Shown: positions 30,236 to 44,538, counted from the first letter of the stretch. The stretch is 64,000 nt of DNA from Minisyncoccota bacterium (GCA_036405415.1 DASWXP010000002.1:427678-491677); one strand, 5' to 3'. Notes: a model not told the origin generated them from the letters alone. Numbers and translations are program-made.

Positions 30236-30237
30236 GT

Positions 30238-31014
30238 ATGTTCGCGAAGAAATCCCTTGGCCAGAACTTCCTAATGCACCGGCAGACTGCTGAGCGTATC
30301 GTCGTCGCTGCCGCGCTCCCCGAGAATGCGCTCGTGCTCGAGATAGGGCCGGGAACCGGCATGCTCACGAAGGAGCTGCTGGCGGCAGGGCATCGCGTAG
30401 TTGCGGTAGAAGCGGACAATGCGCTTGCGCCGGAGCTCGAAGAAACGTTTAAGGACGAAGTGGGGCAGGGGAAGCTTCGGGTGGTGCACGGCGACATCCG
30501 GGAATTTGACCCGAAGGACGTGGGTGAGACGTACCATCTCGTCGCCAACATCCCGTACTACATAACCGGCGAGATCATCCGTCAGTTCCTCACAGCCGCG
30601 CACAAGCCCCGATCCATGACCCTCCTCGTCCAGAAGGAGGTAGCCGAGCGCATTGCGCGCTCGAAGAAGGAGAGCCTGCTTTCTCTGTCCGTTAAGGCAT
30701 ACGGAGAACCTAAATACTGCTTTACCGTACCCCGGGGCGCCTTCCGGCCCGCGCCGAACGTGGATTCGGCTGTCCTATATATAGGAAACGTGGGTTCAGG
30801 AGCGTTCAAGGGCTCAGAAGCGAGCTTTTTCGAGGTTCTGCATGTTGGGTTCGCGCATAAGCGCAAGCGCTTGGCGAAGAACCTTGCGGAGAAGTGGGGA
30901 AGCGACGCTGTGACAGCCGCGTTCGCCCGGCTCGCGCTGCCTGAAAACATCCGCGCCGAAGACCTGTCGCTCGAGCGCTGGCTCGGCCTCGCGAACGAAC
31001 TCACGCAGCCGTAG
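30238..31014 (+). CDS. rsmA: 16S rRNA (adenine1518/1519-N6)-dimethyltransferase
   Basis: GQNFL start motif, the SAM-binding EIGPGTG motif and NIPY. Confidence 0.9.
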   Translation: MFAKKSLGQNFLMHRQTAERIVVAAALPENALVLEIGPGTGMLTKELLAAGHRVVAVEADNALAPELEETFKDEVGQGKLRVVHGDIREFDPKDVGETYHLVANIPYYITGEIIRQFLTAAHKPRSMTLLVQKEVAERIARSKKESLLSLSVKAYGEPKYCFTVPRGAFRPAPNVDSAVLYIGNVGSGAFKGSEASFFEVLHVGFAHKRKRLAKNLAEKWGSDAVTAAFARLALPENIRAEDLSLERWLGLANELTQP

Positions 31015-31095
31015 GGGGTGCGTGCAATACACAACTCGTATCTTCCTTTCGTGAAGGGTTGATGATTCGTGCGTGGTACTATTTCGCTAAGGAAT

Positions 31096-32100
31096 ATGGC
31101 TCATTCTGCACGCACTCTTCGCATCATCGGCGCATCGCTGCTCGCACTCCTCATGATAGGAGGCTCGTATATGTTCTCGGGTCCTACGCCCTGGGGCAGG
31201 GTAGCCGAGGCAGAGTCGGCAGAAGAGCTCCTCAAGGCATACGCAGCCAAGGACACCGACACGGACGGGCTCCCGGACTGGCAGGAGTCGCTCTACGGCA
31301 CTGACCCTAATAACCCGGAGTCCTTCCAGGCAGGGATCAAGGATGGGGAGGCAGTGGCGCAAGGGCTCGTGCAGCCGAGGGTAGCGGTGCGTCCCGAGGA
31401 TGAGCCTATCGACCCGAGCACGATTCCGGGAACCGTCGCAGCGCCGTCCTCGGTAACCGACCGCTTCTCGCAGACGCTTCTCAAGCAGTACCTGCTCAGC
31501 CGCGGCGAGAACCCGCCGACCCCCGCCGAGATAACGGCGTTCGTCACGGACGCTCTCGCAGACCTCTCGCTGAGCTCGCAGCACCCTGACGCCTTCTCGC
31601 TTGCGGACGTACGCGCTTCCTCCGAGACCGGCACGGACGGCCTCGCCCTGTACGCCGCTCGCGCAGAAGAGGCGCTCGCTTCGCAGAATATTCGCCCTGC
31701 GAAGAATGAGCTCTTCTACTTCTCTGATGCCGTAAAAGGCAACTCGAGCGCGCTCGGAAAGATCAGGCAGATCAGCGACGCGTACGAGGCGTCGAGCCGC
31801 GCATTCATGCAGGTGCCGGTACCGGAGGAAGCGCGCAGGGCACATCTTTCGGTCGCGAACGCGCTGAACGGCATGGCTGCCATCACGGAAGATCTTGCGT
31901 CCCTTGAGACTGATCCGCTTCGTGCGCTCGTTGGCCTTGCAGCATACGACAAGCAGTCCGCAGAGCTTATCCGCGCGCTCGCTTCCATGCATAACGTGCT
32001 TTCGGCGCGCTCGGTGTCCATACCAGCAGGGCAATCCGGTGCGGAATTCCTGTTCCTCGCCGAAGAGTCAGCACGGAGCGCGGCAGCCGGCCAGCAATAA
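31096..32100 (+). CDS. membrane-anchored hypothetical protein (first gene of the plus-strand T4SS-like block)
   Basis: N-terminal TM anchor, then an acidic/Ala-rich extracytoplasmic region. The alternative start is 31069. Confidence 0.45.
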   Translation: MAHSARTLRIIGASLLALLMIGGSYMFSGPTPWGRVAEAESAEELLKAYAAKDTDTDGLPDWQESLYGTDPNNPESFQAGIKDGEAVAQGLVQPRVAVRPEDEPIDPSTIPGTVAAPSSVTDRFSQTLLKQYLLSRGENPPTPAEITAFVTDALADLSLSSQHPDAFSLADVRASSETGTDGLALYAARAEEALASQNIRPAKNELFYFSDAVKGNSSALGKIRQISDAYEASSRAFMQVPVPEEARRAHLSVANALNGMAAITEDLASLETDPLRALVGLAAYDKQSAELIRALASMHNVLSARSVSIPAGQSGAEFLFLAEESARSAAAGQQ

Positions 32101-32106
32101 AAGAGT

Positions 32107-33558
32107 ATGCGAAACCTTCTACCCCAGACCATTGCGACCCTCGCGCTTGCTTTTGTGTTACTCAGTCCAAGCGCTGCACATGCGGTAGCGGGCCCGGTTG
32201 TAGAGGTGGGTCCTGCGCTCGTCACGCAGAAGCTCACCCTCATCGAAAGCGGCATAAGCGCCGTGAAGAACGCCGCATCGGTCACGAAGGAATACATCCT
32301 CGACACGCTTGCCTGGGAGGTCGCGAACATGGCGATCGAATCCATAACCGCAAGCACGGTCAATTGGATAAATTCCGGGTTCCAGGGGTCTCCTGCGTTC
32401 GTCACCGATCTTCAGCAGAACCTCCGCGGCGTTGACGACGCTATCGCGGCGCGATTCTTCGAGGAGCTCTCGAACCAGGAGATCGAGACGACGCCTTTCC
32501 AGGACCGTGTGCTCGATGCGGTACGGCTCGGCTATTACCTGCGCACCAGCCCTGAATCTTTCTACACGCGCTACCCGAACACGCTCAGCGCCGTGAGCGA
32601 CAACCCGAGCGCCTTCCTGGCAGGGGATTTCAGTCAGGGAGGCTGGGACGCCTGGTTCCAGACGGTTATGAACCCGTCGAACAATCCGCTCAGCGCGCTA
32701 GACCTCATCAACCGCGAGCTCGAAGATGCGGTTTCGTCTGGCACCGGCACCAGGCTCCAGGAGCTCTCCTGGAACCGCGGCTTCTTGCAGTGGTGCGGCG
32801 ATGAGATCTCCGGCGAACAGGATGCTGGAGAGCAGCAGACGCTCGCGCTCGGACAGACCGACCAGTGTGTCGGGAAGAAGACGAGGACTCCAGGCGTCGT
32901 TATACAAGAGCAGCTCAATCAGGCGGTGGGTTCGGGCATGGAGCGTCTTACGGTCGCGGATGATTTCAATGAGATAATCGGCGCACTCCTCAACCAGCTC
33001 GCGCTCCAGGTGCTCGGGGGAGGGAATGGAGGAGGCCTCGTCGGTGCGAGTCGACCTTCTGCCGGCGGCGGCGCTTCATTCATAGATTCAACACGCGGCC
33101 AGGGCTCGGGTTCCGGTGCAGGACTCAGCGCATCGTTCCTCGCCACCATACAGAACCAGCGCACTCAGGTCGAACGGTTCCAGGCGAACTGGACGAAGAT
33201 CCGCGGTGCTGCTGAAGCAGCAGCACAGCAGTGTGGATCAAACGGAACACCTGACGCGCAGGCGGCGCTTGATAGGGCAGGTGCGCAGCTCGTGCGCGCA
33301 GCAGACGCGCTCGCTGCCATCGCTGAGCTCGAAGCGGATATCAGTGAGGCAAATGCCGAAGGCGGAAACCAGTCCGCAGCGCTTGCAGGTATCTCAAGCA
33401 GGTACGGCACACTCATAAACACGAACGTGCTTCCGACACCGGAGGAGATATCTGAGGCTGAGAACGGGGCACAGGACACGGGTGATGCCGACCCAGGATC
33501 CCTGTACAGCCAGTTGATGCGCCAGTCTTCGTCGTTGTCCTGCCGTGCGGATACTTAG
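32107..33558 (+). CDS. secreted hypothetical protein
   Basis: Signal peptide ending AHA, Gly/Ser-rich central region and coiled-coil. Confidence 0.5.
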   Translation: MRNLLPQTIATLALAFVLLSPSAAHAVAGPVVEVGPALVTQKLTLIESGISAVKNAASVTKEYILDTLAWEVANMAIESITASTVNWINSGFQGSPAFVTDLQQNLRGVDDAIAARFFEELSNQEIETTPFQDRVLDAVRLGYYLRTSPESFYTRYPNTLSAVSDNPSAFLAGDFSQGGWDAWFQTVMNPSNNPLSALDLINRELEDAVSSGTGTRLQELSWNRGFLQWCGDEISGEQDAGEQQTLALGQTDQCVGKKTRTPGVVIQEQLNQAVGSGMERLTVADDFNEIIGALLNQLALQVLGGGNGGGLVGASRPSAGGGASFIDSTRGQGSGSGAGLSASFLATIQNQRTQVERFQANWTKIRGAAEAAAQQCGSNGTPDAQAALDRAGAQLVRAADALAAIAELEADISEANAEGGNQSAALAGISSRYGTLINTNVLPTPEEISEAENGAQDTGDADPGSLYSQLMRQSSSLSCRADT

Positions 33559-33561
33559 GCT

Positions 33562-36096
33562 ATGCGAGGATTGCTCCGCATATCACTGATCTTCGTCGCA
33601 CTGCTGCTAGTGGGCGCACAGGATGTTCATGCTTTTTCCGGCATTCCGGCCATAGATGCACAGGTGACACAGCAACAGCTCCAAGCAATAGGAACTACTT
33701 GTTCAAGTGCTCAAGGGGCACAGAAAACACGAGGAGCGTTCGGCGAACGGGGTACCGGCACGAAGGACTCTTGTATTGCAGAGGATGATGATCACAGGAT
33801 TTTCTGTAGATACAGCTCCGCGAGCGGACAGTACAGAGATGCCGAGTATTGCCAAATAACCTATAAAGACATTCAGCCTCCTGCAGAGAACACGAAGACC
33901 GTAGACGTGAACCTGCTTAACGTGACCGGCGGCGGCGTTGACCAAGACGTAACCACACAGCAAGAAGCCGACAGTTCCGGGCAGGTGGCCTCAGCCCCAA
34001 AGTCTTGTAGCGCATTCGATATCGCAGCATGTATCCGCGCGCTCCCGGGGATGCTCTTCGTGGCGCTCGGATTCATATTCCTCACGATCTCGGGACTCAT
34101 CCTGTTCTTGGCGGGAACGCTCTTCAACTGGGTGGTACTGCGCACAGTGTTCCAGTTCGGGGAGTATTTCGGCACGTCCGAAGGCATGCTCGTGGCGTGG
34201 GGTGTGGTGCGCGACATCGCGAACATAGGCCTTCTCTTCGGCTTCATCCTCATGGGCGTCCTGCTCATCCTGAACGTCGACGGGGGAGGGCACGGGCATG
34301 GGCACGGAGGCGGCATCAGCGCCAAGAAGGCGATACCGCGCCTAATCATCTTCGCGGTGCTCCTCAACTTCAGCCTCTTCACAACGCAGTTCGTCGTTGA
34401 TATCGCGAACGCGTTCGGCTCCACCTTCACGACCCTGGCGGGCGACACAGAGTGCGAAGCGGGCGTCTCGGGAGGAACAGGAGGGTCAGAGAGCCTCGAG
34501 GATTGCGCCGTGAAGACCGGCATCTCAGGAAAGATCCTCGCTGCGACCGGCATAACCAAGATCAACGACCTGGACGCCGCGAAAGAAGGCATCGAGATGT
34601 TCTTCAACAGGACGTATCAGTACGCCACGTCGCTCATGATGCTTTCCGTCTTCGTGCTCATAACCGCTATGGTGCTGCTCGCGGGCGCGGTCATGTTGGT
34701 CATACGCGTCGTCGTGCTCTCGTTCCTTATGGTGACGTCGCCTATCGGGTTCGCTGGTATGGTGATACCGGGACTGTCGGGCATCGCGCAGAAGTGGTGG
34801 GACACCCTTATACACCAGGCATTCTTCGCTCCGGTGTACCTGCTGCTTATCTTCATCAGCATCAAGCTCACCGAAGGCCTCATCGGCAACGGCAACAACC
34901 TCACGAACGCTATCATCGGGAACCAGGGCGTGGGCACCGCGGGGAACGTCCAGGTCGTGATGATCTATGCGATTGTTATCGGCTTCATGATCGCCTCGCT
35001 CGTAGCTGCCCAGAAGATGGGCGCGATGGGCGCGAAGTTCGCTACGAGCTCGGCAGCTGCCCTTACGGTCGGCAGCGCAGGATTTGTCGGAAGGAGAACG
35101 CTCGGTGTGGGCTCTGAGATGGCTGCTAAGCGAATCGCCCAGTCCTCATGGGCGCGCAATAATGGCTTCGGGAGCAGGACCGCATACAACCTCTTCAACA
35201 AGGGAGCCACATCGAGCTTCAGCCTCCGCAACGGCCTTGGCGGCGCGGCTAAGGGCATGGGTCTCGACATGGGTAAGGCTAGCAAGGACGTTTCGCATGG
35301 CATACATGGCATCGTAGAAAAGGAAGTAAAGGCGCGAAAGGAGTTCGCGGACAAGGGAATCAAGCAGACGGGTGCAGAGGTGGCGCAAGAGAATGCGCTC
35401 AAGGACGAGAAGGAGCAGTTGAAATACTACAAGAGCGCCGCTCAGGAACAGGCCGCACGAGACAAGGATACTGATGAGGCTCCTATCAAAGCACAGGAGA
35501 ACGCCTACAAGGCCATGGCGGACGCCCGCACTGAAGCTATTGAAAGTAAGAAGAGGGGAATCGCCTCACTTATCAAAGCAGGCGGTGGCGGTGATGCGCT
35601 TAAGCGCGAAGAAGAGGCGCTTGAAGCCCTCGAAGAGGCACATGCTCAGGCTTCTGCAACGGAGGCGGCAGATATCGCGGCGAGGAAGCAGCTCCTCGAC
35701 GAGCGGCAGGCTCGCTATCAGCAGACGATCAAGGGATACGATGACCGCAGCAAGCAGATCGATCGCGAGATCAGTGGGTACGAGGAGTTCGACCCTGCAA
35801 CCCGCAAGATGGTCTGGCGTCCTGGCGTCTCTCAAGATTCAGCACGGCGTACATACGGCGAAGCCATCAAGGCGCAACACGGTCTTCCTTGGCCGTCAGT
35901 GGGTCACCACGTGAACGAAGAAGCGGCCGCTGACATCATCAAGAAGCTCAAGAAGAGCAAGCGTGACAAGCTCATCGATGCGCTCAAGGAGAACGCGAAG
36001 GACGAAGAGAAGGAAGAGAAGAAGGATGATCATGGAGGAGGAGATGACCACGGAAAGGGTGGCGACAAGGGTGGTGGCGGACATGCACCTCACTAG
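33562..36096 (+). CDS. VirB6/TrbL-like polytopic membrane protein with a long charged C-terminal tail
   Basis: Signal peptide, a Cys-containing periplasmic domain, at least six TM helices, then a roughly 300-aa coiled-coil/charged tail ending in a Gly/His-rich stretch. The assignment rests on topology and operon context, not a motif match. Confidence 0.45.
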   Translation: MRGLLRISLIFVALLLVGAQDVHAFSGIPAIDAQVTQQQLQAIGTTCSSAQGAQKTRGAFGERGTGTKDSCIAEDDDHRIFCRYSSASGQYRDAEYCQITYKDIQPPAENTKTVDVNLLNVTGGGVDQDVTTQQEADSSGQVASAPKSCSAFDIAACIRALPGMLFVALGFIFLTISGLILFLAGTLFNWVVLRTVFQFGEYFGTSEGMLVAWGVVRDIANIGLLFGFILMGVLLILNVDGGGHGHGHGGGISAKKAIPRLIIFAVLLNFSLFTTQFVVDIANAFGSTFTTLAGDTECEAGVSGGTGGSESLEDCAVKTGISGKILAATGITKINDLDAAKEGIEMFFNRTYQYATSLMMLSVFVLITAMVLLAGAVMLVIRVVVLSFLMVTSPIGFAGMVIPGLSGIAQKWWDTLIHQAFFAPVYLLLIFISIKLTEGLIGNGNNLTNAIIGNQGVGTAGNVQVVMIYAIVIGFMIASLVAAQKMGAMGAKFATSSAAALTVGSAGFVGRRTLGVGSEMAAKRIAQSSWARNNGFGSRTAYNLFNKGATSSFSLRNGLGGAAKGMGLDMGKASKDVSHGIHGIVEKEVKARKEFADKGIKQTGAEVAQENALKDEKEQLKYYKSAAQEQAARDKDTDEAPIKAQENAYKAMADARTEAIESKKRGIASLIKAGGGGDALKREEEALEALEEAHAQASATEAADIAARKQLLDERQARYQQTIKGYDDRSKQIDREISGYEEFDPATRKMVWRPGVSQDSARRTYGEAIKAQHGLPWPSVGHHVNEEAAADIIKKLKKSKRDKLIDALKENAKDEEKEEKKDDHGGGDDHGKGGDKGGGGHAPH

Positions 36097-36108
36097 TACA
36101 ATGCACCT

Positions 36109-36858
36109 ATGGATACCCCCGAGGAACTTGATGACGCAGATGTGAGTGCCGCCGTCGCTTCGGCGATGCGTGACCTGCCTAAGCCGGTACGCGATTTCCT
36201 CAAGAGCGATGAGCGCGACGTGGTGGTACGCGACCTGTCTGCGAAGTACAACCTCCATGTAGACCAGGCAGGGGAGTTCGAGCGCGCGTTCATACTCATG
36301 CTGCTCGGCGTCGAGCGTCCTGAGGAATTTATGGCATCGCTTTCAGCGACCGGACTAACTGCTGACGTCATCAACGGCCTGGCAACGGACCTTAATGAGC
36401 GGGTGTTCACTCCGTTGCGGGACGCCGAGCGCTTGGCAGCAACCACCCCGGTACCCGTTCCGCCAAAGAAGCCTGAGCCGATCCCGCCGCCTGCGCTCGA
36501 CTACCAGCCAGCGCAGACCCTTCCAGGGTCGCCGGTCCCAGCTCCCATGCCCGCGCTCGCTGTTGCTCCACAGGCGCCCGTTGCGCAGCAGCATATCGTA
36601 CATGCGATGCCAGAGACGCATCAGGCAGGGTGGCATCCAGCAGCGGCAGTTCACATATTCGTTCCCACACACCAGGCCATGCCTCAGCCGGTTCCTGTAG
36701 CTGCGACCCCTGTTCCTGTACAGCCTGAGCCGGCGCCAGTTGTACCTGCTGCGCCCGCACCCGCACCTGAGGTTCCTGTGGCAGCAGAGGTGGTGGTATC
36801 GCAACCTCCTCCTATAACGAAGAGTTACGGCGCTGATCCGTATCGCGAACCGATTTAA
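36109..36858 (+). CDS. Pro-rich hypothetical protein
   Basis: Globular N-terminal 120 aa, then a PxP-rich low-complexity region. Confidence 0.4.
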   Translation: MDTPEELDDADVSAAVASAMRDLPKPVRDFLKSDERDVVVRDLSAKYNLHVDQAGEFERAFILMLLGVERPEEFMASLSATGLTADVINGLATDLNERVFTPLRDAERLAATTPVPVPPKKPEPIPPPALDYQPAQTLPGSPVPAPMPALAVAPQAPVAQQHIVHAMPETHQAGWHPAAAVHIFVPTHQAMPQPVPVAATPVPVQPEPAPVVPAAPAPAPEVPVAAEVVVSQPPPITKSYGADPYREPI

Positions 36859-36905
36859 CCAACCGCGCGCGATGCTCGTGCGCAGCATCGGGTATACTGA
36901 TAGCG

Positions 36906-37319
36906 ATGGAGTACCAGGTCCCGCAGTTCATTGAGGTCGAAGACAAGATCTTCGGACCGTTCACGCTCAAGCAGTTCGTATACGTCGCGGGCGGGGTAGG
37001 GCTCTGCGCGATCCTTCTCCTGTACTTGCCGCTCATCGTCGGCATCTTCCTCGCGATTCCGGTAGCCGCGTTCACCGCTGCGCTCGCGTTCTACAAGATT
37101 AACAACAAGCCGTTCGTAGATATTCTCGAAGCCGGCTTCAACTACTACATCGGCAACCGGCTGTATCTCTGGAAGAAGGAGCAGCCCCAGGCGCCGGCAG
37201 CACCTACGATACAGGCTCCCGTAACACCGACAGACACACAGAAGCTCGGCCTTACCCAAGGAAAGCTCAAGGACCTCGCGTGGTCTCTAGATATCCAGGA
37301 TAGGGAGCCTGGCGCATAA
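36906..37319 (+). CDS. PrgI-family (VirB3-like) small membrane protein
   Basis: N-terminus VPQFIEVEDKIFGPFTLKQFVYVAGG and two TM helices, the typical PrgI signature. It lies immediately upstream of the VirB4 ATPase. Confidence 0.6.
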   Translation: MEYQVPQFIEVEDKIFGPFTLKQFVYVAGGVGLCAILLLYLPLIVGIFLAIPVAAFTAALAFYKINNKPFVDILEAGFNYYIGNRLYLWKKEQPQAPAAPTIQAPVTPTDTQKLGLTQGKLKDLAWSLDIQDREPGA

Positions 37320-37324
37320 CCCGT

Positions 37325-37954
37325 ATGTCTCCGACCAAGACCACCCAGTCGTTCGTACCGGTGAAGGAAGTGCGCAACGGCGTGATTGTCCTTAAGAATG
37401 ACGGTTACCGCGCTGTCCTGATGTGTTCTTCGATAAACTTCGCGCTTAAGGGCGAAGACGAGCAGCGCGCCATCATCGGCGGATTCCAGAGCCTCCTTAA
37501 CACGCTCGATTTCTCGATCCAGATCGTCGTCCATTCGCGCAAGACTGATATCCGCCCGTACCTCGCCCTCCTTGAGACGCGCATGCAGGACCAGACCACG
37601 GAGCTTATGCGCCTGCAGCTTCGCGAGTACATCCAGTTCATCCGCAACTTCATCGATTCGAGCGACATCATGTCGAAGCTCTTCTACGTCGTGGTGCCGT
37701 ACACCCCGGGGGCAGGGGGTATCGTGAAGCAGGCCGCGCCGCTCTTCGGCGGGAAGCCTGTCCCCCAGGGACAAGGCCAGGGTTCGTTCGAGGAGCACCG
37801 CGTACAGCTCGAGCAGCGCATGGCGCTGGTCGTCTCAGGCCTCGCCTCAAGCGGCGTGCGTGCGGTGCCGCTTGGAACCGAGGAGATCATCGAGCTCCTG
37901 TACCGATCTTTCAACCTCTCAGAGCTCGAGAATCCTATCCACCTAGCCGCATAG
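37325..37954 (+). CDS. VirB4/TrbE-family ATPase, N-terminal segment (ends at in-frame TAG)
   Basis: N-terminal VirB4 signature VPVKEVRNGVIVLKNDGYRAVLMCSSINFALKGEDEQ. It is in the same frame as the following ORF, separated only by TAG-CCT. Confidence 0.65.
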   Translation: MSPTKTTQSFVPVKEVRNGVIVLKNDGYRAVLMCSSINFALKGEDEQRAIIGGFQSLLNTLDFSIQIVVHSRKTDIRPYLALLETRMQDQTTELMRLQLREYIQFIRNFIDSSDIMSKLFYVVVPYTPGAGGIVKQAAPLFGGKPVPQGQGQGSFEEHRVQLEQRMALVVSGLASSGVRAVPLGTEEIIELLYRSFNLSELENPIHLAA

Positions 37955-37957
37955 CCT

Positions 37958-39784
37958 ATGGCACTCCTTGATTTCCTCGGAAAGAATAAGAAAGGGAACG
38001 ACGCGCCGGCTATAGCGCCGGTGCTTCCGAAGGATATCTACGCGGAAGGGGAGCTCCAGCTTGCGGACGCGATCGCGCCGGCCGCGCTCAAGGTAGGTCC
38101 GCGCGAGCTTGAGCTCGGCGAGAAGGTCTCGCGCTCGTTCTACACCATCTCGTATCCGCGCTTCTTGGTAGACAGCTGGTTCACCCCGATCATTAACCTC
38201 GACAAGGTGTTCGATGTCTCTATCTTCATCCACCCAGTGGAGACCGGCTCCGCATTGCGCGGCTTCCAGAAGAAGGTAGCGGAGATCGAGAGCCAGATCG
38301 CTGACCGCGAGGAGAAGGGCCTCGTCCGCGATCCGATGCTCGATACCGCGTATCGCGACCTCGAACAGCTCCGCGACCAGCTGCAGCAGGCCGAGGAGCA
38401 TATCTTCGAGGTAGGTTTGTACATAACGATATACGGAAGCTCCAAGGAGGAGCTCGACAAGATCGAGGCGGATGTCCGCGGCATCCTCGACGCGAAGCTG
38501 GTCTACACGAAGCCTGCCTTGTTCCAGCAGGAGCAGGGCTTCCGCTCCACGCTTCCGCTTGCGAACGACGAGCTCCAGGTTACCTCGAAGCTTAATTCCT
38601 CGCCGCTTTCCTCCATATTCCCGTTCGTCTCCTTCGACCTCACCTCAGACCGCGGCATCCTCTATGGCATCAACCGCCATAACGCGTCGTTGATCCTCTT
38701 CGACCGCTTCTCGCTCGAGAACTACAACTCCGTGGTATTCGCGAAGTCTGGTTCAGGCAAGTCGTACGCCGTGAAGCTCGAGATTCTCCGTTCGCTCATG
38801 TTCGGGACTGATGTCATCGTCATCGATCCGGAGCGCGAGTATGAGAACCTCGCACAGGCGACCGGCGGACGCACCTTCAACATTTCGCTTTCGTCTGAGC
38901 ATCACATCAACCCGTTCGACCTTCCGGCGGTGAAGGAGGATGAGGAGCCGGGGGACATCCTGCGCTCGAACATCATCAACCTCGTAGGACTCTTCCGCAT
39001 CATGCTTGGCGGCCTCTCGCCTGAAGAGGATGCGATCATCGACCGCGCAATCACCGAGACCTATGCGCTCAAAGACATCACCGGGGATGCCGACTTCACA
39101 GGAATCGAGCCGCCGCTCCTCTCTGACTTCGAGAACGTGCTCTCTGGCATGGAAGGCTCTGAATCGCTCGTAACGCGCCTTTCCAAGTACACGCACGGCA
39201 CCTGGGCCGGCTTCATCAACCAGCCGACCAACATCGACATAAACAAGCAGTTCATCGTCTTCTCGGTGCGCGACATGGAGGACGAGCTGAAGCCGGTGGC
39301 GATGTACATCATCACGCACTACATCTGGAACGCGGTGCGCAAGGACCTCCGTAAGCGCTTGCTTATCATCGACGAGGCCTGGTGGATGATGAAGTCGGAC
39401 GATACGGCGTCGTTCCTCTACAGCCTCGCGAAGCGCGGCCGCAAGTACTATCTCGGCGTCGCTACCATCACGCAGGACGTGGAAGACTTCCTTCGCTCGC
39501 CCTACGGCCGTCCGATCCTCACGAACTCGTCGATGCAGCTTCTCTTGAAGCAGTCACCGACCACCATCAACATACTCAAGGAAACCTTCAACCTTACGGA
39601 CGAAGAGAAGTTCCTGCTCCTTGAGTCCGGGGTGGGGGAGGGGCTCTTTTTCGCCGGCCTCAAGCATGTGGCTATCAAGGTGGTCGCCTCCTACACCGAA
39701 GACCAGATCATCACCTCAGACCCGTCGCAGCTCCTTCAGATCCGCCGCGAGAAGGAACGGATGGATCAAGGGCTTTCGGCATAG
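37958..39784 (+). CDS. VirB4/TrbE-family T4SS ATPase, C-terminal ATPase segment
   Basis: Walker A VVFAKSGSGKSY, Walker B LLIIDEAWWM, and CagE_TrbE_VirB-type region. Confidence 0.85.
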   Translation: MALLDFLGKNKKGNDAPAIAPVLPKDIYAEGELQLADAIAPAALKVGPRELELGEKVSRSFYTISYPRFLVDSWFTPIINLDKVFDVSIFIHPVETGSALRGFQKKVAEIESQIADREEKGLVRDPMLDTAYRDLEQLRDQLQQAEEHIFEVGLYITIYGSSKEELDKIEADVRGILDAKLVYTKPALFQQEQGFRSTLPLANDELQVTSKLNSSPLSSIFPFVSFDLTSDRGILYGINRHNASLILFDRFSLENYNSVVFAKSGSGKSYAVKLEILRSLMFGTDVIVIDPEREYENLAQATGGRTFNISLSSEHHINPFDLPAVKEDEEPGDILRSNIINLVGLFRIMLGGLSPEEDAIIDRAITETYALKDITGDADFTGIEPPLLSDFENVLSGMEGSESLVTRLSKYTHGTWAGFINQPTNIDINKQFIVFSVRDMEDELKPVAMYIITHYIWNAVRKDLRKRLLIIDEAWWMMKSDDTASFLYSLAKRGRKYYLGVATITQDVEDFLRSPYGRPILTNSSMQLLLKQSPTTINILKETFNLTDEEKFLLLESGVGEGLFFAGLKHVAIKVVASYTEDQIITSDPSQLLQIRREKERMDQGLSA

Positions 39785-39787
39785 GCC

Positions 39788-40312
39788 ATGGATAAGAAGC
39801 ACACTATTGGGAGCGTGAACGCCGGGTTCATGATCGTGACTGCGCTTGCGATAGACGGTACGCAGCTTCTCCTGACCGCAAGCGTATTCCTCATCCCGCT
39901 CACCTGGCTCTTCTCGTTCATCGCGTTCATCTTGTTCCCGCTCTGGTTCATGCTCTCGGGCGTTAAGTACGGGGGCGGGGCAGGGGGACGCAGGCTCCTT
40001 ATCATGCTCGCGAGCGCCATCGCGGAGATAGCCCCTCTCATAAACGGGCTTCCTGCTTTGAGCGCAGGCGTGATAGGAACGGTGATACAGACCAGGATCG
40101 AGGACGCGAGAAGGAATGCGGGCGGGAAAGTCACACCGAAAACCGCGCTCGCAGCCGCACGCATGGTCCGCATGCAGCGAGCAGCGCTCGCCCGACAGGA
40201 CGCAGCGCGTCGGGAGCGCGAAGCAACACAAGTAGCACGTCACACGCCAGCGAACGACAACGTTCCTCCGGCCGCAAACGATAACGGTTTTGAGGAGCGT
40301 AGAGCAGCCTAG
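39788..40312 (+). CDS. three-TM hypothetical membrane protein
   Basis: Hydrophobic N-terminal 100 aa and a basic, Ala/Arg-rich C-terminus. Confidence 0.45.
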   Translation: MDKKHTIGSVNAGFMIVTALAIDGTQLLLTASVFLIPLTWLFSFIAFILFPLWFMLSGVKYGGGAGGRRLLIMLASAIAEIAPLINGLPALSAGVIGTVIQTRIEDARRNAGGKVTPKTALAAARMVRMQRAALARQDAARREREATQVARHTPANDNVPPAANDNGFEERRAA

Positions 40313-40360
40313 CTTACCCCCGTCCGTACGCGATCTCAGTGCTGCCTGGCGGTATATACT

Positions 40361-41344
40361 GTGCATATGATACGAAGCGCGCTCATCGCACTAGCTCTTC
40401 TTCTTGGAGGAGTCGCTCATGCCCAGGCACTTCCCGGAGCCGAGCCTCTCACGGTCTTGCTTTCTCCTGAGCATCCCCGTCCATACCAATCCTTTCAGGT
40501 CTCTCCGCGGAGCTCCCTCATCGACCTCTCCGCAAGTACGGTCCGCGTGTCCGTAGACGGCACCCAGGTGTATGAAGGGAGCGGAACGCAAGCGGCGACC
40601 GTCCGTGCCGGAGCTCTCGGAACCCGCACGAATGTCACGGTTAGCGTGACTGACGCGGCAGGGAAGGTATACACCAAGCAGATCTCAGTGCGGCCTGCCG
40701 AGGTCTCGCTCGTACTCGAGCCTGCATCGACCGCGCATCCTTTCTATAAGGGCGGCGGGTTGGTGGCGTCAGAAGGGACGGTCCGTCTCATCGCGCTAGC
40801 AGACCTGCGCACGTCTGCTGGTGTCCGTATCCCGCCACAGAACCTCGTGTATACCTGGAGGCTAGGAGATCGTGTCCTTACGGACGCCTCAGGGATAGGG
40901 AAGTCGGCGCTTACTGCCACCGCTCCGGTCCGCTACCGGAACGCTGACATCAGCGTAACGGTGTCGAGCGCTGACAGCTCGCTCGTGGCAGAGGCGCGGA
41001 CCCTGGTCTCGGCCGTGGATCCTGTCGCTCGCGTCTACCAGAACGATCCGCTGCTCGGCCCGAACTTCGATATGGCGCTCGCGAGCCGGTTCTCTATGCC
41101 TGACACGGAAGCCACCTTCCGTGCCGTCGGGTACTTCTTTGCCGTTCCGCCTGTGTTCTCTTGGAACGTGAACAGCTCGTCCGGGGGCAGCGACAAGGAC
41201 GTTACGGTTCGCGCGACCGGAAACGGTACCGGCACCGCCCGGCTATCCCTTACTGCTACCGAGTCTGAATCCCGAAGGAGCGCCTCGTCCGCATTCACGG
41301 TTGATTTCGGCTCCGCCCGCGGCTTTGGATTCTTCGGCCTATAA
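40361..41344 (+). CDS. secreted hypothetical protein (beta-rich, Ser/Thr/Val-rich)
   Basis: Signal peptide ending AHAQA. Confidence 0.45.
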   Translation: MHMIRSALIALALLLGGVAHAQALPGAEPLTVLLSPEHPRPYQSFQVSPRSSLIDLSASTVRVSVDGTQVYEGSGTQAATVRAGALGTRTNVTVSVTDAAGKVYTKQISVRPAEVSLVLEPASTAHPFYKGGGLVASEGTVRLIALADLRTSAGVRIPPQNLVYTWRLGDRVLTDASGIGKSALTATAPVRYRNADISVTVSSADSSLVAEARTLVSAVDPVARVYQNDPLLGPNFDMALASRFSMPDTEATFRAVGYFFAVPPVFSWNVNSSSGGSDKDVTVRATGNGTGTARLSLTATESESRRSASSAFTVDFGSARGFGFFGL

Positions 41345-41347
41345 CCT

Positions 41348-42217
41348 ATGAAATACTTTCTCTTCGCCCTCGCGCTCCTGACCCTTCCAGCCCTCGCGTT
41401 CGCACAGGAGACCGGTTTCGTGCCGCTCACGAACACCCCGTTCATCGAGCAGGCAGGGAACGCGGTTGATCTTCCGAACATGCTCAACCAGCTCTACCGG
41501 CTCTGCATCGGCATCGCGGCGGTCGTGGCGGTGCTCCAGATCATGCGCGCGGGCATCATGTACATGGGAGGGGACAGCGTGACCGAGAAGAAGGAGGCAA
41601 AGAACCTTATCGCGCTCTCTATCGGCGGGCTCGTGCTGGTCCTTTCTCCGGTTATCGTGTTCTCGGTTATCAACCCCGACATCCTGAGCCTCAAGATCGG
41701 CGGTATCGAGAACCTGCGCACGCAAGGCACCGGAACGACGACACAGCAGACCGCAAGCACTACGCAGACAGGGGGAGGGGGCTCTGGACAGTCCTGCCCG
41801 ACAGCACCGATCCTTATCGCAAGCAACGGCATTTGTCCGAACGGGCACGCAGAGATGCCTGCCGCGTGCGTCGCGAGCAAGTGCAGCGGCATGACGGGAG
41901 GGAAGTGCTGCTACCAGACCACTTCAGCCCAAGCACCCGCTAACCAGCCTGCGAACTACACGCCCACCGGTCCGCAGCGGTTCAAGATGGCATACAAAGA
42001 CGTCGATTTCCTCAACTCTGATCCTGCCCTGAGCGGGAGGGAGTGTGTCACATATATCGACCGGACTCTTCCTTCGCTTGAAACCTGCCAGGAAGCAGAG
42101 ATCGAGACCGGCACTCGGCTTACTGCCGACGAGAAAGAGTTTATTTTCGTGAAGCGCTGTATAAATAATGAGTTGCCGCGACACCGATTCATGGATCTTC
42201 CTACTTGCGCCTCCTAG
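41348..42217 (+). CDS. VirB2/TrbC-like pilin-like secreted membrane protein with a Cys-rich C-terminal domain
   Basis: Signal peptide, two adjacent hydrophobic helices separated by a short loop (LCIGIAAVVAVLQIM...LIALSIGGLVLVLSPVIVF), then a C-terminal domain with about 10 Cys. The call rests on topology only. Confidence 0.4.
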   Translation: MKYFLFALALLTLPALAFAQETGFVPLTNTPFIEQAGNAVDLPNMLNQLYRLCIGIAAVVAVLQIMRAGIMYMGGDSVTEKKEAKNLIALSIGGLVLVLSPVIVFSVINPDILSLKIGGIENLRTQGTGTTTQQTASTTQTGGGGSGQSCPTAPILIASNGICPNGHAEMPAACVASKCSGMTGGKCCYQTTSAQAPANQPANYTPTGPQRFKMAYKDVDFLNSDPALSGRECVTYIDRTLPSLETCQEAEIETGTRLTADEKEFIFVKRCINNELPRHRFMDLPTCAS

Positions 42218-42220
42218 ATT

Positions 42221-43438
42221 ATGAACCGACGTACTCTCTTCATCATCGCAGCCGTCATCGTCCTCATCGGGCTTGTTGTGGGTGCTATCTTCCTTTTCGG
42301 CAACAATGCCACTCTCGAGCCGGGTGTTCCTGGGAATCCCTTCGGCTCGAGTGAGGATCGCGACCCGTCCTCTTCACTTACTCCTGATGGCCAGCCGGTA
42401 CAGGGCGCAGGAACCGTCGTGGCGCCGCGCCTGATCCGCATCACGGACGTGCCGGTCGCCAAAGGGGCAGCGGCACTCTACATACCTCCGGTGCTTGGGG
42501 CGACCTCTACCGATCCCGGAACGCCCGAGGACGTCGAGATACGCTTCATTGAGCGCCAGAGCGGAAACGTGTATTCGTTCCGCGTTCATGACCGCCTCCT
42601 TACCAGGACCTCGAACCGTACGCTTCCGGGCATCCAGGACGCAGTGTGGAGCGCGGACGGTACGCGCGCATTTGCGCGCTATCTGACCAGAGGATCGGAT
42701 GGTATCGAGCGTATCGATACGTACGCACTCACGCACGACGGCTCGGAAGGGTATTTCTTGGAGCAAGGGGTCGATGCTATCGCCGTCCAGGCCTCAACCA
42801 CTGTGTTCTCGCTCCTTCCGAGCAGTTCCGGCTCCATCGGAACGCTTTCAAATACTGACGGGTCTAACGTGCGCACCCTGTTCACGTCCGCGCTCTCGCG
42901 CCTTGCGGTTTCGTTTTCCGGCGGGGATATCGTAGCTACCACAAAGGCTTCTTCGGGCCTTGATGGGTACAGCTTCCTGGTCTCTCGTGCAGACGGGTCG
43001 TTTACGCGTATCCTCGGTCCGTTCCGGGGACTTACGACACTCGCGAACGCCGAAGGCACCGCTGTCCTCTTCAGCTATGTCGACAGGAACCGGACCTATC
43101 TGCAGACCATTGATCTTGCGACGCGTGCCGTGACCGCGCTACCGCTCTCGACGCTCTCAGAGAAGTGCGTTTGGGCACCAGGAGGAAGGGCGGTGTATTG
43201 CGCAGTCCCGACCGCACTGGCAGGGAACGTTCCTGACGATTGGTACCAAGGTGCGCAGTCCTTCTCGGACCGTCTCTGGCGCATCGACCTCGACACCCGC
43301 CTCGCAACACTCGTGGTTGATCCAGGACAGGTAGCTGAGGTTGCAATCGATGCGGTAGCGCTCTCTATCGACCCAACAGCTGACGTTCTGGTATTCACGA
43401 ACAAGAAGGACGGAACCCTCTGGGTGTATGACCTCTAA
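42221..43438 (+). CDS. N-terminally anchored extracytoplasmic protein (beta-propeller-like), hypothetical
   Basis: One TM helix, then a repetitive beta-rich domain. Confidence 0.5.
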   Translation: MNRRTLFIIAAVIVLIGLVVGAIFLFGNNATLEPGVPGNPFGSSEDRDPSSSLTPDGQPVQGAGTVVAPRLIRITDVPVAKGAAALYIPPVLGATSTDPGTPEDVEIRFIERQSGNVYSFRVHDRLLTRTSNRTLPGIQDAVWSADGTRAFARYLTRGSDGIERIDTYALTHDGSEGYFLEQGVDAIAVQASTTVFSLLPSSSGSIGTLSNTDGSNVRTLFTSALSRLAVSFSGGDIVATTKASSGLDGYSFLVSRADGSFTRILGPFRGLTTLANAEGTAVLFSYVDRNRTYLQTIDLATRAVTALPLSTLSEKCVWAPGGRAVYCAVPTALAGNVPDDWYQGAQSFSDRLWRIDLDTRLATLVVDPGQVAEVAIDAVALSIDPTADVLVFTNKKDGTLWVYDL

Positions 43439-43467: not shown

Positions 43468-44196
43468 CTATGCTTCTGAGCGAACCTTTTCTCTGCGCAC
43501 GATATATTCCTGCAGCAACCCTACCAGGTTAGAGGTTATGAAGTAGAGGGCGATGGCTACCGACGTGAAGTATGCCGCGATTGCGATAAATATCGGTAGG
43601 ATGAAGCGCATCTGGGTCGCCATAGCGCGCCCAAAATCGGCCTGCATGTCCTTACCTGGCTCCTTAGGCTTCTCCGGCATCGGAATCGCGTACCATCCAT
43701 ATGCGAGCTGTGTGAGTCCCGCCAGAAGCGAGAGCACGATGCTCGCGCCCGTAACCGCGAAGATGCCGAGGAAGAGGGGAGCGATGGTCTCAGGAACCGG
43801 AATGAAGGAGTAGAGGATGTCCGTATTAACCGTGAGTAGGGTCTTGCTGTTAAATACCCAATAGAGAGACAAGACGATTGGGAGCTGAATGAGGAGGGTA
43901 AGGAGTCCCGCGAACGGGTTCACCTTGTATTCCTTGTAGAGTGCGAACATGGCCTTGGCCTGCGCTTCCTTATCATCCTTCATGGTCTCCCGGATCTTCT
44001 TCATCTCAGGCTCCATCGCCTTCACCGCGCGCTGAGTGCGGAGTGCCGCGAAGGAAAGCGGCATGATGATGATCTTCACGATGAGGGTCGCGACCACTAC
44101 CGCAAGACCGATATCGTATCCCGGAAGGACGTCCGTGAGGCCGATGAGAAGGTTATAGATGGGCGTGTAGAGGGTGGTATAGAAGAAATCGATCAT
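43468..44196 (-). CDS. yidC: membrane protein insertase YidC/Oxa1 (short form)
   Basis: Five-TM 60-kDa IMP core with the conserved LPIVLSLYW region. Confidence 0.9.
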   Translation of the reverse strand: MIDFFYTTLYTPIYNLLIGLTDVLPGYDIGLAVVVATLIVKIIIMPLSFAALRTQRAVKAMEPEMKKIRETMKDDKEAQAKAMFALYKEYKVNPFAGLLTLLIQLPIVLSLYWVFNSKTLLTVNTDILYSFIPVPETIAPLFLGIFAVTGASIVLSLLAGLTQLAYGWYAIPMPEKPKEPGKDMQADFGRAMATQMRFILPIFIAIAAYFTSVAIALYFITSNLVGLLQEYIVRREKVRSEA

Positions 44197-44211: not shown

Positions 44212-44538
44212 CTACGCTCCTTGGGTAAGCGCTCGTGAAAGGAGCTCGGTAAGCTCGGTTTTCAGTTCCTGATAGGGAAGGGAAGAAGCGCCGGGGCGGG
44301 CATACACGATGAGCGTAGTGTCTTTAGCGCAATAACCCTTCATAACCGAAAGCATGCGGCGCTTCAGAAGGTGCCGGGATACCGATAGTTTGGCTATTTT
44401 CTTAGAGATAACGGTCGCGCACCCTCCGTTTCCGTCGGTTTTTCTGACGGAAATGGAGAAGTGGGCGCTCGCCGCCCGGGTTTCCGGGCCCATAGGCGCG
44501 AAATGCGCCCGAGAGAGGCGCATTTCCTTACGAATCAT
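44212..44538 (-). CDS. rnpA: ribonuclease P protein component
   Basis: 108 aa, basic, in the conserved rpmH-rnpA-yidC arrangement. Its start overlaps the rpmH stop by 1 nt. The 284-aa ORF in the track is an upstream extension through rpmH and was rejected. Confidence 0.7.
   Translation of the reverse strand: MIRKEMRLSRAHFAPMGPETRAASAHFSISVRKTDGNGGCATVISKKIAKLSVSRHLLKRRMLSVMKGYCAKDTTLIVYARPGASSLPYQELKTELTELLSRALTQGA

Follow-up and report, generated by a model that had tools for sequence, protein, structure and literature searches.

An eleven-gene operon adjacent to the replication origin region

The window (the whole 64-kb stretch of DNA analysed) contains, on its plus strand at positions 31069-43438, eleven co-directional ORFs, g1 to g11, separated by gaps of 3-54 nt. 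The ORF map bears out a preliminary description of this region as a 12-kb plus-strand block of eleven tightly spaced genes between ksgA and yidC. That description itemized ten products for the eleven genes; the product left unnamed, or lumped into VirB4, is that of the gene at 37325-37954, which encodes a VirB4 N-terminal domain. A crude hydropathy scan, from which all signal peptides and transmembrane (TM) segments given here for g1-g11 derive, reproduces the topologies originally assigned (anchored or secreted proteins, a polytopic protein with a charged tail, a Pro-rich protein, and a three-TM protein), and the GC content of the block, 0.59-0.61, matches that of the whole window, and is host-like, as had been stated.

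Upstream of the block lie uvrD (28280-30235, plus strand; Pfam UvrD-helicase, 2e-78) and ksgA (30238-31014, plus strand; Pfam RrnaAD, 2.5e-48), the latter ending 54 nt upstream of g1; both are co-directional with g1 and possibly form one transcription unit with the block. Downstream lies the convergent gene yidC (43468-44196, minus strand; Pfam 60KD_IMP), followed by rnpA (about 44212-44538, minus strand) and rpmH (44538-44675, minus strand), both recognised from their translations (RnpA and L34); then come a perfect DnaA box, TTATCCACA (44765-44773), directly before dnaA (about 44774-46129, plus strand; Pfam Bac_DnaA), and dnaN (46359-47459, plus strand; Pfam DNA_pol3_beta). The block is ~1.3 kb from the rpmH-dnaA origin region, and the cumulative GC-skew minimum falls at 42-44 kb of the window. 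A gene encoding a LysM and M23 peptidoglycan peptidase (27009-28031, minus strand; Pfam Peptidase_M23, 2.7e-32; LysM, 1.7e-22) is located 3 kb upstream of the block, divergent from uvrD. In Paceibacteria, M23 and LysM domains occur on virB4-associated VirB1-like proteins (PMC12102498), and the peptidase is a possible candidate for a type IV secretion system (T4SS) accessory protein.

The presence of orthologues of the block genes in related loci, in the same order, indicates that the ORFs are genuine genes and not chance ORFs. Across 80 related loci, tblastn detects orthologues of g5, g6, g7, g9, and g11 in 66-80 loci, of g10 in 54, and, for the faster-evolving genes, of g1-g4 in 30-47 and of g8 in 16; gene order is the same as in the block in the representative related loci inspected. 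A synteny comparison across relatives places the block at one chromosomal site in dozens of Paceibacteria genomes, with the order uvrD-ksgA-[g1..g11]-yidC-dnaA-dnaN recurring in Kaiser-, Nomura-, Taylor-, and Adlerbacteria-type genomes. VirB4 has a higher identity than DnaA in each of 61 loci, which had been picked by VirB4 similarity.

A predicted membrane platform and a two-gene VirB4

The product of g5 (36906-37319, plus strand; 137 aa) is a PrgI/VirB3-type small membrane protein, as initially proposed: it scores 39.8 bits with Pfam PrgI (PF12666; gathering score 27) and has orthologues in 75 of the 80 loci, with a median identity of 53%.

The product of g3 (33562-36096, plus strand; 844 aa) is a polytopic membrane protein comprising a signal peptide, a Cys-containing N-terminal ectodomain, eight TM segments, and a tail of 324 aa, 35% of them K/R/E/D. 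The window protein matches the NCBIfam profile for the Mbov_0396 ICE membrane protein over aa 320-496 (E=1.3e-4; score 21.6 bits, cut-off 70). In an alignment of 32 sequences (the window protein and 31 orthologues), 5 match Pfam TrbL/VirB6 (best 1.9e-7) and 1 matches TrbL_4, and orthologues also match MMCAP2_0566 (5.9e-9) and the CD3337/EF1877 conjugation membrane families. The family profile gave no significant match to one CD1112 VirB6 sequence by hhalign and matched no VirB6 chain among PDB sequences. The original designation of g3 as a VirB6/TrbL-like protein with a long charged tail is supported through the orthologues, the window protein itself scoring below curated thresholds, and the topology and position of g3 fit this assignment.

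The product of g7 (37958-39784, plus strand; 608 aa) is the body of a VirB4 ATPase. It matches the NCBIfam CD1110 family with 376.3 bits, over the cut-off of 325, which substantiates the VirB4 ATPase of the preliminary description; it matches the Pfam TraG P-loop domain (7e-25), and it has intact Walker A (AKSGSGKS, aa 261-268) and Walker B (LLIIDE, aa 468-473) motifs. Identity is 74-95% across the 80 loci. There are at least 574 genome matches to g7, and, among the best 80, all phylum-labelled records are Patescibacteria, with many labelled just 'bacterium'. The closest plasmid VirB4s are all from single-membrane bacteria, have at most 36% identity to g7, and have the VirB6-PrgI-x-VirB4 gene order in common.

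The product of g6 (37325-37954, plus strand; 209 aa) is a TrsD-like protein corresponding to the VirB4 N-terminal domain. It matches the NCBIfam profiles VirB4_plasma (E=6.8e-9, profile positions 101-233), CD1110 (E=8.8e-6, positions 2-102), and TrsD (E=0.045), and its alignment with the VirB4 of plasmid pCDC3875, a fused protein of 797 aa, covers aa 25-197 of the latter (E=2e-7). In the window, g6 and g7 are in the same frame and are parted by TAG CCT alone. In related loci, g6 is an ORF of its own in 78 of 78 cases checked (identity 45-86%), all three stop codons are used at the g6/g7 junction, gaps range from 1 to 486 nt, and only 28 of the 78 loci have the two ORFs in one frame, approximately the chance expectation. 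The results rule out that the in-frame TAG is a nonsense mutation in VirB4. We conclude that the two-gene VirB4 is not a pseudogene, since g6 is separate in every locus checked.

A single pilin with a conserved hairpin and a hypervariable domain

The product of g10 has an N-terminal part comprising a signal peptide and a VirB2-type pilin hairpin (aa 1-120; 41348-41707, plus strand), a disordered linker, and a hypervariable, disulfide-rich, predicted extracytoplasmic C-terminal part (aa 148-289; 41789-42217, plus strand). The preliminary description of a VirB2-like protein with a signal peptide, two TM segments, and a Cys-rich C-terminus holds. Matches to Pfam T4SS_pilin (E=3.3e-5, 24.3 bits; gathering score 26.6) and TrbC (E=3e-4, 21.4 bits) are both just sub-threshold, many homologues bear PF18895 or PF04956, and the NCBI name for the exact window protein is 'pilin'. 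The AF2 model shows a helical hairpin, with pLDDT ~85-98 for the C-terminal domain; the hairpin resembles the Aeropyrum conjugation-type pilin 8dfu_B, in a structural match no better than those to generic helical hairpins. Loci have one pilin gene in 55 of 56 cases.

The two parts of g10 differ sharply in conservation, with a median identity of 77% for the hairpin vs. 22% for the C-terminal domain. Nine of the ten Cys positions of the C-terminal part are kept in 57-65 of 68 sequences, and the tenth, Cys233, is kept in 43. Across loci the C-terminal extension varies from 11 to 293 aa, and its Cys count is even in all loci but one. A phmmer search with the C-terminal domain found just 3 relatives in 1.84 billion representatives, and a comparison with PDB folds found no match. 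A pilus is favoured by the pairing of a highly conserved hairpin with a hypervariable, predicted external domain on a 10-Cys scaffold, and by the single pilin gene per locus. An appendage of 140 aa on each pilin subunit might impede helical packing, which counts against a pilus.

We tentatively suggest that the Paceibacteria T4SS pilin consists of two modules, a near-invariant VirB2-type hairpin and a fast-evolving 10-Cys domain that would cover the filament and determine host specificity. If so, g10 would correspond, in a single gene, to the arrays of divergent pilins in Saccharimonadia. We found no description of a two-module pilin in the T4SS literature cited here (PMC12102498, PMC10633639, PMC11665869, PMC12857230), and the combination of conserved hairpin and hypervariable 10-Cys domain is possibly a new detail within a known system.

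Extracytoplasmic and accessory proteins of the block

The product of g2 (32107-33558, plus strand; 483 aa), encoded directly upstream of g3, is a secreted protein with a signal peptide and an all-helical AF2 model (pLDDT 70.9) that matched no PDB fold. The window protein does not match Pfam DUF4141, and 14 of 73 homologues do (best 2.4e-8); in Bacteroides tra operons, DUF4141 genes adjoin traJ. Some g2 orthologues carry additional Ig-like or discoidin adhesion domains. The matches suggest that g2 is distantly related to the DUF4141 protein of Bacteroidetes conjugative transposons, perhaps a further new detail; if so, this would add one more conserved T4SS component.

The product of g9 (40361-41344, plus strand; 327 aa), found in 78 of the 80 loci, is a secreted protein with a signal peptide. 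First described as beta-rich, it can be specified as having Ig-like beta-sandwich domains: its family profile matches the T4 Hoc Ig domains (E=5.4e-5), and, among 32 orthologues, 14 match BiPBP_C, 6 match Cadherin-like, and 4 match Ig_3. The products of g1 (31069-32100, plus strand; 343 aa; true start probably the ATG at 31096) and g11 (42221-43438, plus strand; 405 aa) are extracytoplasmic proteins with a single N-terminal membrane anchor in g1 (aa 19-37) and a TM segment at aa 6-24 in g11. In g1, the anchor is followed by a conserved thrombospondin type-3 calcium-binding repeat (Pfam TSP3_bac, E=2e-4, aa 62-83) and a helical region; across 29 aligned sequences W71, D70, and D92 vary little or not at all, and the g1 profile matched no T4SS structure among PDB sequences. 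In g11, found in 66 loci, C316 and C327 are invariant. The N-terminal anchor earlier assigned to g11 stands, and the beta-propeller-like fold earlier assigned to it is weakly supported (family profile vs. TolB, E=0.006; PD40 in 2 of 33 orthologues); g11 is possibly a TolB-like beta-propeller.

The two remaining genes encode a soluble protein and a small membrane protein. The product of g4 (36109-36858, plus strand; 249 aa) has no TM segment and comprises an N-terminal domain of ~110 aa and a proline-rich tail (27% Pro in aa 115-249); it matches no Pfam or NCBIfam family, and its orthologues are found at the same position in 33 loci. The product of g8 (39788-40312, plus strand; 174 aa) has three predicted TM segments and a charged tail ending in a PANDN...AA motif conserved in an alignment of 14 sequences. 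As a candidate pilin, g8 was rejected (hhalign probability 0.6%).

A vertically inherited T4SS operon and its probable working

The block is a Patescibacteria T4SS operon, in a Candidatus Paceibacterota genome, of a type already published (Quinonero-Coronel 2025, PMC12102498; Wang 2023, PMC10633639), and the preliminary view of such clusters, as known from Patescibacteria but functionally uncharacterised, agrees with the literature (PMC12102498, PMC10633639, PMC11665869). Pfam and NCBIfam searches found no relaxase and no VirD4 coupling protein among the 11 block proteins and the 37 other main ORFs of the 64-kb window. No integrase adjoins the block; the sole recombinase, XerC/D-like, is encoded 7.8 kb from the block, with housekeeping genes in between. 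For the main ORFs scanned, the results match the initial account, which saw no relaxase, coupling protein, or integrase at the block and took it not to be a recent integrative and conjugative element (ICE); the fixed site in dozens of Paceibacteria genomes points the same way. Given the recurrent gene order, the conservation of VirB4 above that of DnaA, and the lack of a relaxase, VirD4, and adjacent integrase among the ORFs scanned, we conclude that the block is a vertically inherited chromosomal operon and not an ICE. Since coupling-protein homologues are encoded elsewhere in most Patescibacteria genomes (PMC12102498), absence of a coupling protein from the window does not mean absence from the genome.

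Homology shows the components of a predicted apparatus: a membrane platform of g3 (putatively VirB6-like) and g5 (PrgI/VirB3), a VirB4 of g6 and g7, and a single VirB2-type pilin, g10. By analogy with the working of such proteins in studied systems, we propose that g10 would be inserted by the Sec pathway and would lose its signal peptide; that VirB4, docked through VirB3 and VirB6, would pull the pilin out of the membrane; that the pilin would polymerise into a conjugative-type filament or conduit; that the extracytoplasmic proteins g1, g2, g9, and g11 would take the structure across the wall; and that the hypervariable Cys-rich domain of g10 would lie on the filament exterior, touching the host cell. 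The cargo is a matter of speculation, with uptake of host macromolecules, for example DNA or nucleotide sources, as the first candidate and effector export as the main alternative. Patescibacteria of this type have no nucleotide synthesis of their own, and we favour uptake because of this inability and because no coupling protein is encoded at the block. Taken as a whole, a Patescibacteria T4SS that builds a conjugative-type filament or conduit, with uptake of host macromolecules favoured, is probably the best explanation of the block. Neither a filament nor a substrate nor a direction of transport has been observed in any Patescibacteria T4SS, and a 2024 perspective calls its role 'completely unknown' (PMC11665869).

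The same components could instead constitute a dedicated exporter, through which the epibiont injects proteins or DNA into the host cell to manipulate or kill it. Export is the commonest direction of T4SS transport, Wang et al. modelled the Southlakia system as delivering DNA or protein (PMC10633639), the 2024 perspective cites speculation on effector delivery (PMC11665869), and the coupling-protein homologues encoded elsewhere in most Patescibacteria genomes (PMC12102498) could be taken to fit. However, the ORFs scanned in or near the operon encode neither a coupling protein nor a relaxase, nor anything recognisable as an effector, and the Southlakia coupling-protein homologue is non-essential, whereas the T4SS genes are essential (PMC12102498). 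We consider an exporter unlikely.

Less probable again is an adhesion-only organelle, a surface filament serving purely for host binding with no transport through it. The parts present approximate the pilus-biogenesis set of studied systems (VirB2, VirB3, VirB4, VirB6), and the hypervariable exposed domain on the pilin and the extra adhesion domains on some g2 orthologues would suit such a role. However, type IV pili for adhesion and motility are already encoded, the window having two PilB ATPases and PilC, and a role beyond adhesion is suggested by the extreme degree to which VirB4 is conserved and by the great length of the VirB6-like protein's tail.

The reading of the block as an ICE, recent or decaying, with the in-frame TAG as a VirB4 nonsense mutation, draws on the occurrence of the nearest characterised VirB4 relatives on conjugative or mobilisable plasmids and on the TAG CCT that alone parts the two same-frame ORFs, but is extremely improbable, and we count it as already refuted by synteny and by the split-gene data (78 of 78 loci, with variable stop, gap, and frame), with strong constraint on both VirB4 halves, host-like GC, and a chromosomal position fixed across orders also against it, as is the failure to find a relaxase, a coupling protein, or, next to the block, an integrase among the ORFs scanned.

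Comparison with known systems

An origin-adjacent T4SS operon is near-universal in Patescibacteria, which are ultrasmall bacteria, and is essential in the one species tested. The published Patescibacteria T4SS (PMC12102498) and the block have a core in common: PrgI, VirB4, a TrsD-like VirB4 N-terminal domain encoded by a gene of its own, a VirB2-type pilin, and, in the block putatively, a VirB6-like protein. Neither has a relaxase or coupling protein nearby; in Paceibacteria in particular, the same component set, missing a relaxase, is located near dnaA, dnaN, ksgA, rnpA, and rpmH. In Southlakia epibionticum, epibiotic growth requires the homologous locus, as shown by Tn-seq, and comEC is dispensable (PMC10633639, PMC12857230). 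The Southlakia cluster (SEML1_0006-0019) has the order VirB6 - PrgI - 0009 - VirB4 (612 aa), equivalent to g3 - g5 - g6 - g7, and is adjoined by an Ig-like exported protein, the position of g9 in the block. However, the Southlakia cluster encodes six short pilins in an array, together with two VirB6-like proteins, a protein of NTF2-like (VirB8-like) type, and a lysozyme, whereas the block has a lone pilin, whose C-terminal domain is long and variable, and a lone VirB6-like protein, with nothing recognisable as VirB8-like and without a wall hydrolase among its genes, and its g1, g2, g4, g8, and g11 are without named counterparts.

As read from sequence, the block descends from the MPF-FATA class of conjugation machinery, that of single-membrane bacteria, and from systems with a CD1110-type VirB4. 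MPF-FATA conjugation systems of the CTn2/CD1110 type, including that of Clostridium botulinum pCDC3875, have the VirB6-PrgI-x-VirB4 order in common with the block, and g7 passes the CD1110 cut-off. In the pGO1 subclass (TrsC-TrsD-TrsE), VirB4 is reported to follow a TrsD gene that stands apart from it and is related to its N-terminus (PMC12102498), as g7 follows g6. In contrast, MPF-FATA plasmid VirB4s have at most 36% identity to g7, and pCDC3875 has a fused VirB4 (797 aa) and also encodes VirD4, a transglycosylase of the SLT type, and a MOBP relaxase. Gram-positive T4SSs are reported to be generally devoid of VirB2-type pilins (PMC12102498, PMC12857230).

The T4SS of Mollicutes ICEs is represented in NCBIfam by Mbov_0395 (pilin-like), Mbov_0396 (membrane protein), and Mbov_0397 (VirB4), and precisely these three families are matched by block components, g10 with Mbov_0395 (E=0.0065), g3 with Mbov_0396 (E=1.3e-4), and g6 and g7 with Mbov_0397 (6.8e-9 and 9e-74), matches that are weak and all far below family cut-offs; Mollicutes T4SSs are mobile ICEs, whereas the block is fixed in the chromosome. 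Helicobacter pylori ComB and archaeal Ced are DNA importers with a VirB4-type ATPase and no relaxase, and g7 has a weak match to CedB (E=1.2e-9). ComB has an outer-membrane core of VirB7-10 and Ced has unrelated membrane proteins. The architecture of the block, with no coupling protein among the ORFs scanned in the window, would be compatible with a DNA importer, and ComB has been invoked as a precedent for Patescibacteria (PMC11665869).

An 11-gene T4SS-like operon near the likely replication origin

The block at 31069-43438 contains 11 ORFs (g1-g11, numbered left to right), all on the plus strand and separated by 3-54 nt, in agreement with a preliminary description of co-directional, tightly spaced genes between ksgA and yidC. 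Upstream, in the same direction, are uvrD (28280-30235, plus strand) and ksgA (30238-31014, plus strand); downstream, convergent with the block, is yidC (43468-44196, minus strand), past which lie rnpA and rpmH, also on the minus strand, and a perfect DnaA box, TTATCCACA (44765-44773), immediately before dnaA and dnaN. This layout, together with a cumulative GC-skew minimum at 42-44 kb of the window, puts the likely replication origin ~1.3 kb beyond the end of the block, which is transcribed towards it. Because the uvrD-ksgA-T4SS unit (28280-43438) is encoded on the plus strand and precedes the dnaA origin region (44765) in the window, its transcription is head-on to replication, an orientation that is called unusual for strongly conserved genes and that is the same in related loci. 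Promoter and terminator scans returned matches no more numerous than in shuffled sequence.

Homology shows predicted components of a T4SS: a membrane platform (VirB6 and VirB3), a VirB4 ATPase made of two proteins, and a VirB2-type pilin. The product of g5 (36906-37319, plus strand) scores 39.8 bits as PrgI/VirB3, above the Pfam gathering score of 27, and that of g7 (37958-39784, plus strand) scores 376 bits as a VirB4 ATPase, above the NCBIfam CD1110 cut-off of 325, and contains Walker A and Walker B motifs. The intervening gene, g6 (37325-37954, plus strand), encodes a VirB4 N-terminal domain, whose matches to VirB4 profiles fall within their first ~100-230 positions and which aligns with aa 25-197 of the fused, 797 aa VirB4 of plasmid pCDC3875 (E=2e-7). 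The VirB2-type pilin, g10 (41348-42217, plus strand), is itself slightly sub-threshold (T4SS_pilin, E=3.3e-5; TrbC/VirB2, E=3e-4); many of its homologues carry one of these two Pfam domains, and the NCBI name of g10 itself is 'pilin'. The VirB6-like protein, g3 (33562-36096, plus strand), matches weakly the Mycoplasma ICE membrane protein Mbov_0396. In an alignment of the window protein and 31 orthologues, Pfam TrbL/VirB6 is matched by 5 of the 32 sequences (best 1.9e-7), TrbL_4 by one, MMCAP2_0566 by two (5.9e-9), and CD3337/EF1877 by two; the family profile finds nothing significant among PDB sequences and no significant match to one single CD1112 VirB6. The family matches, the topology, and the position beside PrgI make the VirB6-like assignment a reasonable one, less secure than the other three. 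The preliminary description had named all four component types; its gene list covered ten kinds of gene and left g6 unnamed. The membrane anchors, signal peptides, TM counts, charged tail of g3, and proline-rich character of g4 that it had reported were reproduced by a crude hydropathy scan.

The remaining proteins are more loosely characterized. The profile match of g1 is restricted to a conserved calcium-binding thrombospondin type-3 repeat, g9 is made up of Ig-like beta-sandwich domains, and g11, described as an anchored beta-propeller-like protein, is anchored and shows faint TolB/PD40 propeller signals. The window proteins g2, g4, and g8 have no family match of their own. Pfam DUF4141 is matched by 14 of 73 g2 homologues (best 2.4e-8); in Bacteroides conjugative transposons the gene for a DUF4141 protein adjoins traJ (VirB6), and g2 lies directly upstream of the VirB6-like gene g3. 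A VirB5-like identity for g2 was rejected: its predicted model is all-helical, but Foldseek against PDB finds nothing significant, and the family profile matches no T4SS chain. We leave g2 as a putative, distant DUF4141-like protein, and its DUF4141 link and place beside the VirB6-like gene may be a new detail. The product of g8 (39788-40312), with 3 TM segments and encoded after VirB4, has no recognised family and does not resemble a pilin (as a second pilin it was rejected at an hhalign probability of 0.6%); its C-terminal PANDN...AA motif is conserved in many orthologues. A gene for a LysM and M23 peptidoglycan peptidase (27009-28031, minus strand), which diverges from uvrD at a distance of 3 kb upstream of the operon, has a homologue in the three related loci with a flank long enough; it might be a candidate stand-in for the missing VirB1-type wall hydrolase, though nothing links it to the operon.

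VirB4 is encoded by two genes

In the window, g6 and g7 are in the same frame with only TAG CCT between them, which makes a nonsense mutation conceivable. To weigh this possibility we inspected the junction in 78 related loci. In every one a stop codon closes the N-terminal domain and the ATPase body has a separate ATG as its start; each of the three stop codons is represented, the spacing is 1-486 nt, and the two genes share a frame in 28 of the 78, about the chance expectation. A pseudogene, or readthrough of the in-frame TAG, is thereby ruled out. We conclude that the split, being universal with varied stops, gaps, and frames, is ancestral and functional. Exactly at this junction, two related genomes (L042, ~6150-6590; L043, ~9515-10000) carry a 440-490 nt insert with a small ORF, which may resemble the '23S rRNA intervening-sequence protein' family of four-helix bundles.

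The operon is inherited vertically and is not an ICE

Species-representative genomes scanned with g7 yielded at least 574 relatives. Among the best 80, at 74-95% identity, every phylum-labelled one is from Patescibacteria (many are labelled only 'bacterium'), mostly Paceibacteria of Kaiser-, Nomura-, Taylor-, and Adlerbacteria type. The order uvrD-ksgA-[g1..g11]-yidC-dnaA-dnaN recurs in related loci. Median identity to the window protein is 78% for the VirB4 body (g7), 58% for the VirB4 N-domain (g6), 57% for DnaA, 53% for PrgI (g5), 42% for DnaN, and 28-34% for the extracytoplasmic and VirB6-like proteins (g1, g2, g3, g9, g11). VirB4 identity exceeds DnaA identity in 61 of 61 loci, these having been picked by VirB4 similarity; conservation beyond that of DnaA argues for very strong selection. 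In a subgroup within loci L018-L040 (VirB4 80-84% identical), no g1-g4 orthologues are detectable upstream of PrgI, and two shorter polytopic membrane proteins are found instead (e.g. L020, 5292-6814), indicating an operon with a fixed PrgI-VirB4 core and an exchangeable upstream half.

The 37 main ORFs scanned outside the block are mostly housekeeping and type IV pilus genes and include no relaxase and no VirD4; the sole recombinase among them, an XerC/D-like gene, is 7.8 kb off. GC content of the block (0.59-0.61) is the same as that of the remaining window. The conserved position, the lack of relaxase and VirD4, and the distance of the sole recombinase argue against an ICE, which synteny, composition, and absent mobility genes rule out. 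The proposal of a domesticated apparatus with host-like GC and no adjacent integrase, rather than a recent ICE, is thereby upheld, including by the synteny comparison it had called for.

Two other features of the window were observed. A low-GC patch (17770-23267; 0.52-0.54 vs. ~0.60) carries four tRNA genes, a diaminopimelate/ornithine decarboxylase-type gene, a CCA-adding enzyme, an ExoIII-type nuclease, and the XerC/D-like tyrosine recombinase (22359-23267, minus strand); its genes resemble a housekeeping set more than the content of a mobile element. Type IV pilus genes (3596-9229 and 53879-55561), comprising two PilB-type ATPases, which are not VirB11 (7433-9229 and 53879-55561), a PilC platform protein (5716-6927), and a protein bearing an N-terminal methylation motif (3596-4336), all on the minus strand, indicate that the cell has a second filament system, unrelated to the T4SS.

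The pilin combines a conserved hairpin with a variable head

The signal peptide and hairpin of g10 (aa 1-120) are kept in ~55 loci, and the region behind them is 11-293 aa long and contains a recurrent CC-x(7-9)-CCG motif; its number of cysteines is even in all loci but one. Across 60 database homologues, median identity to g10 is 77% for the hairpin vs. 22% for the C-terminal part; for the closest homologues the values are 90-95% vs. 38-40%. This cysteine-rich head has a 10-Cys framework, nine positions of which are present in 57-65 of 68 sequences and the tenth, Cys233, in 43 of 68. An AlphaFold2 model places the hairpin in helices 42-74 and 78-108, followed by a disordered linker and then by a Cys-rich module and an alpha/beta domain modelled with confidence (pLDDT 90-98). 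An exhaustive phmmer search with the C-terminal part returned only three relatives beyond the query protein, one of which (P0241, 1832 aa) has no CC motifs and appears to be a spurious match. The positive-inside rule, together with the membrane topology established for VirB2/TraA pilins, predicts that the C-terminus of g10 faces outwards, so that the head would decorate any filament. The two-part pilin may be a new detail.

Proposed mechanism

In studied T4SSs, pilin leaves the membrane through the action of VirB4, which also drives pilin polymerisation on VirB6. By analogy, we infer that VirB4 would pull the g10 pilin out of the membrane and power its polymerisation on the VirB6-like g3, and that the extracytoplasmic proteins of the block would span the wall. 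More speculatively, the variable pilin head might touch the host and the conduit might bring in host macromolecules, an import role favoured by the lack of a coupling protein encoded here and by the lack of nucleotide synthesis in these bacteria. Effector export through the T4SS, or a role in adhesion only, may be alternatives to macromolecule import. The hypervariable head is a concrete candidate host-recognition determinant.

Comparison with known systems

The observation is confirmed and its interpretation supported, and the system is already known: the literature describes it, making the finding a rediscovery, and the earlier remark that such clusters are reported in Patescibacteria is borne out (PMC12102498; PMC10633639; PMC11665869). 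Of 3,035 Patescibacteria assemblies surveyed by Quinonero-Coronel et al. (2025; PMC12102498), 2,407 contain a VirB4 of one monophyletic clade derived from MPF-FATA; virB4 neighbours TrsD, PrgI/VirB3, VirB6, and VirB2-like genes, a TrsD-like gene is the commonest T4SS component, relaxases are nearly absent, coupling proteins are seldom close by, and the Paceibacteria cluster lies near dnaA, dnaN, ksgA, rnpA, and rpmH (PMC12102498). In Southlakia epibionticum, Tn-seq showed that the homologous SEML1_0006-0019, with core order VirB6 - PrgI - 0009 - VirB4 (612 aa) and a pilin array, is essential for growth on the host (Wang et al., 2023; PMC10633639). A 2024 perspective describes the role as completely unknown and names effector delivery and ComB-like DNA uptake as ideas for it (PMC11665869), and a 2025 review calls these systems unique among monoderm T4SSs (PMC12857230).

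The system is important: few machines of these ultrasmall bacteria have a demonstrated essential role in epibiotic life, and this is one of them. The window contributes one clean, complete Paceibacteria example, an 11-gene operon at the replication origin, whose remaining value lies in the pilin-head observation and the strength of conservation; VirB4 conservation above that of DnaA, the two-gene VirB4 throughout the relatives, and the pilin head could be useful for experiments. Whereas Saccharimonadia have pilin arrays, here there is one pilin gene per locus (55 of 56 loci). Among plasmid proteins, g7 is matched best, at ≤36% identity, by CD1110-type VirB4s from Streptomyces, Bacillales, and Clostridium. 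Plasmid pCDC3875, which carries a MOBP relaxase, has the order VirD4 - x - VirB6 (CD1112) - PrgI - x - VirB4 (fused) - x - SLT transglycosylase; its mobility functions and wall hydrolase are absent from the window block, and the core gene order is common to both.
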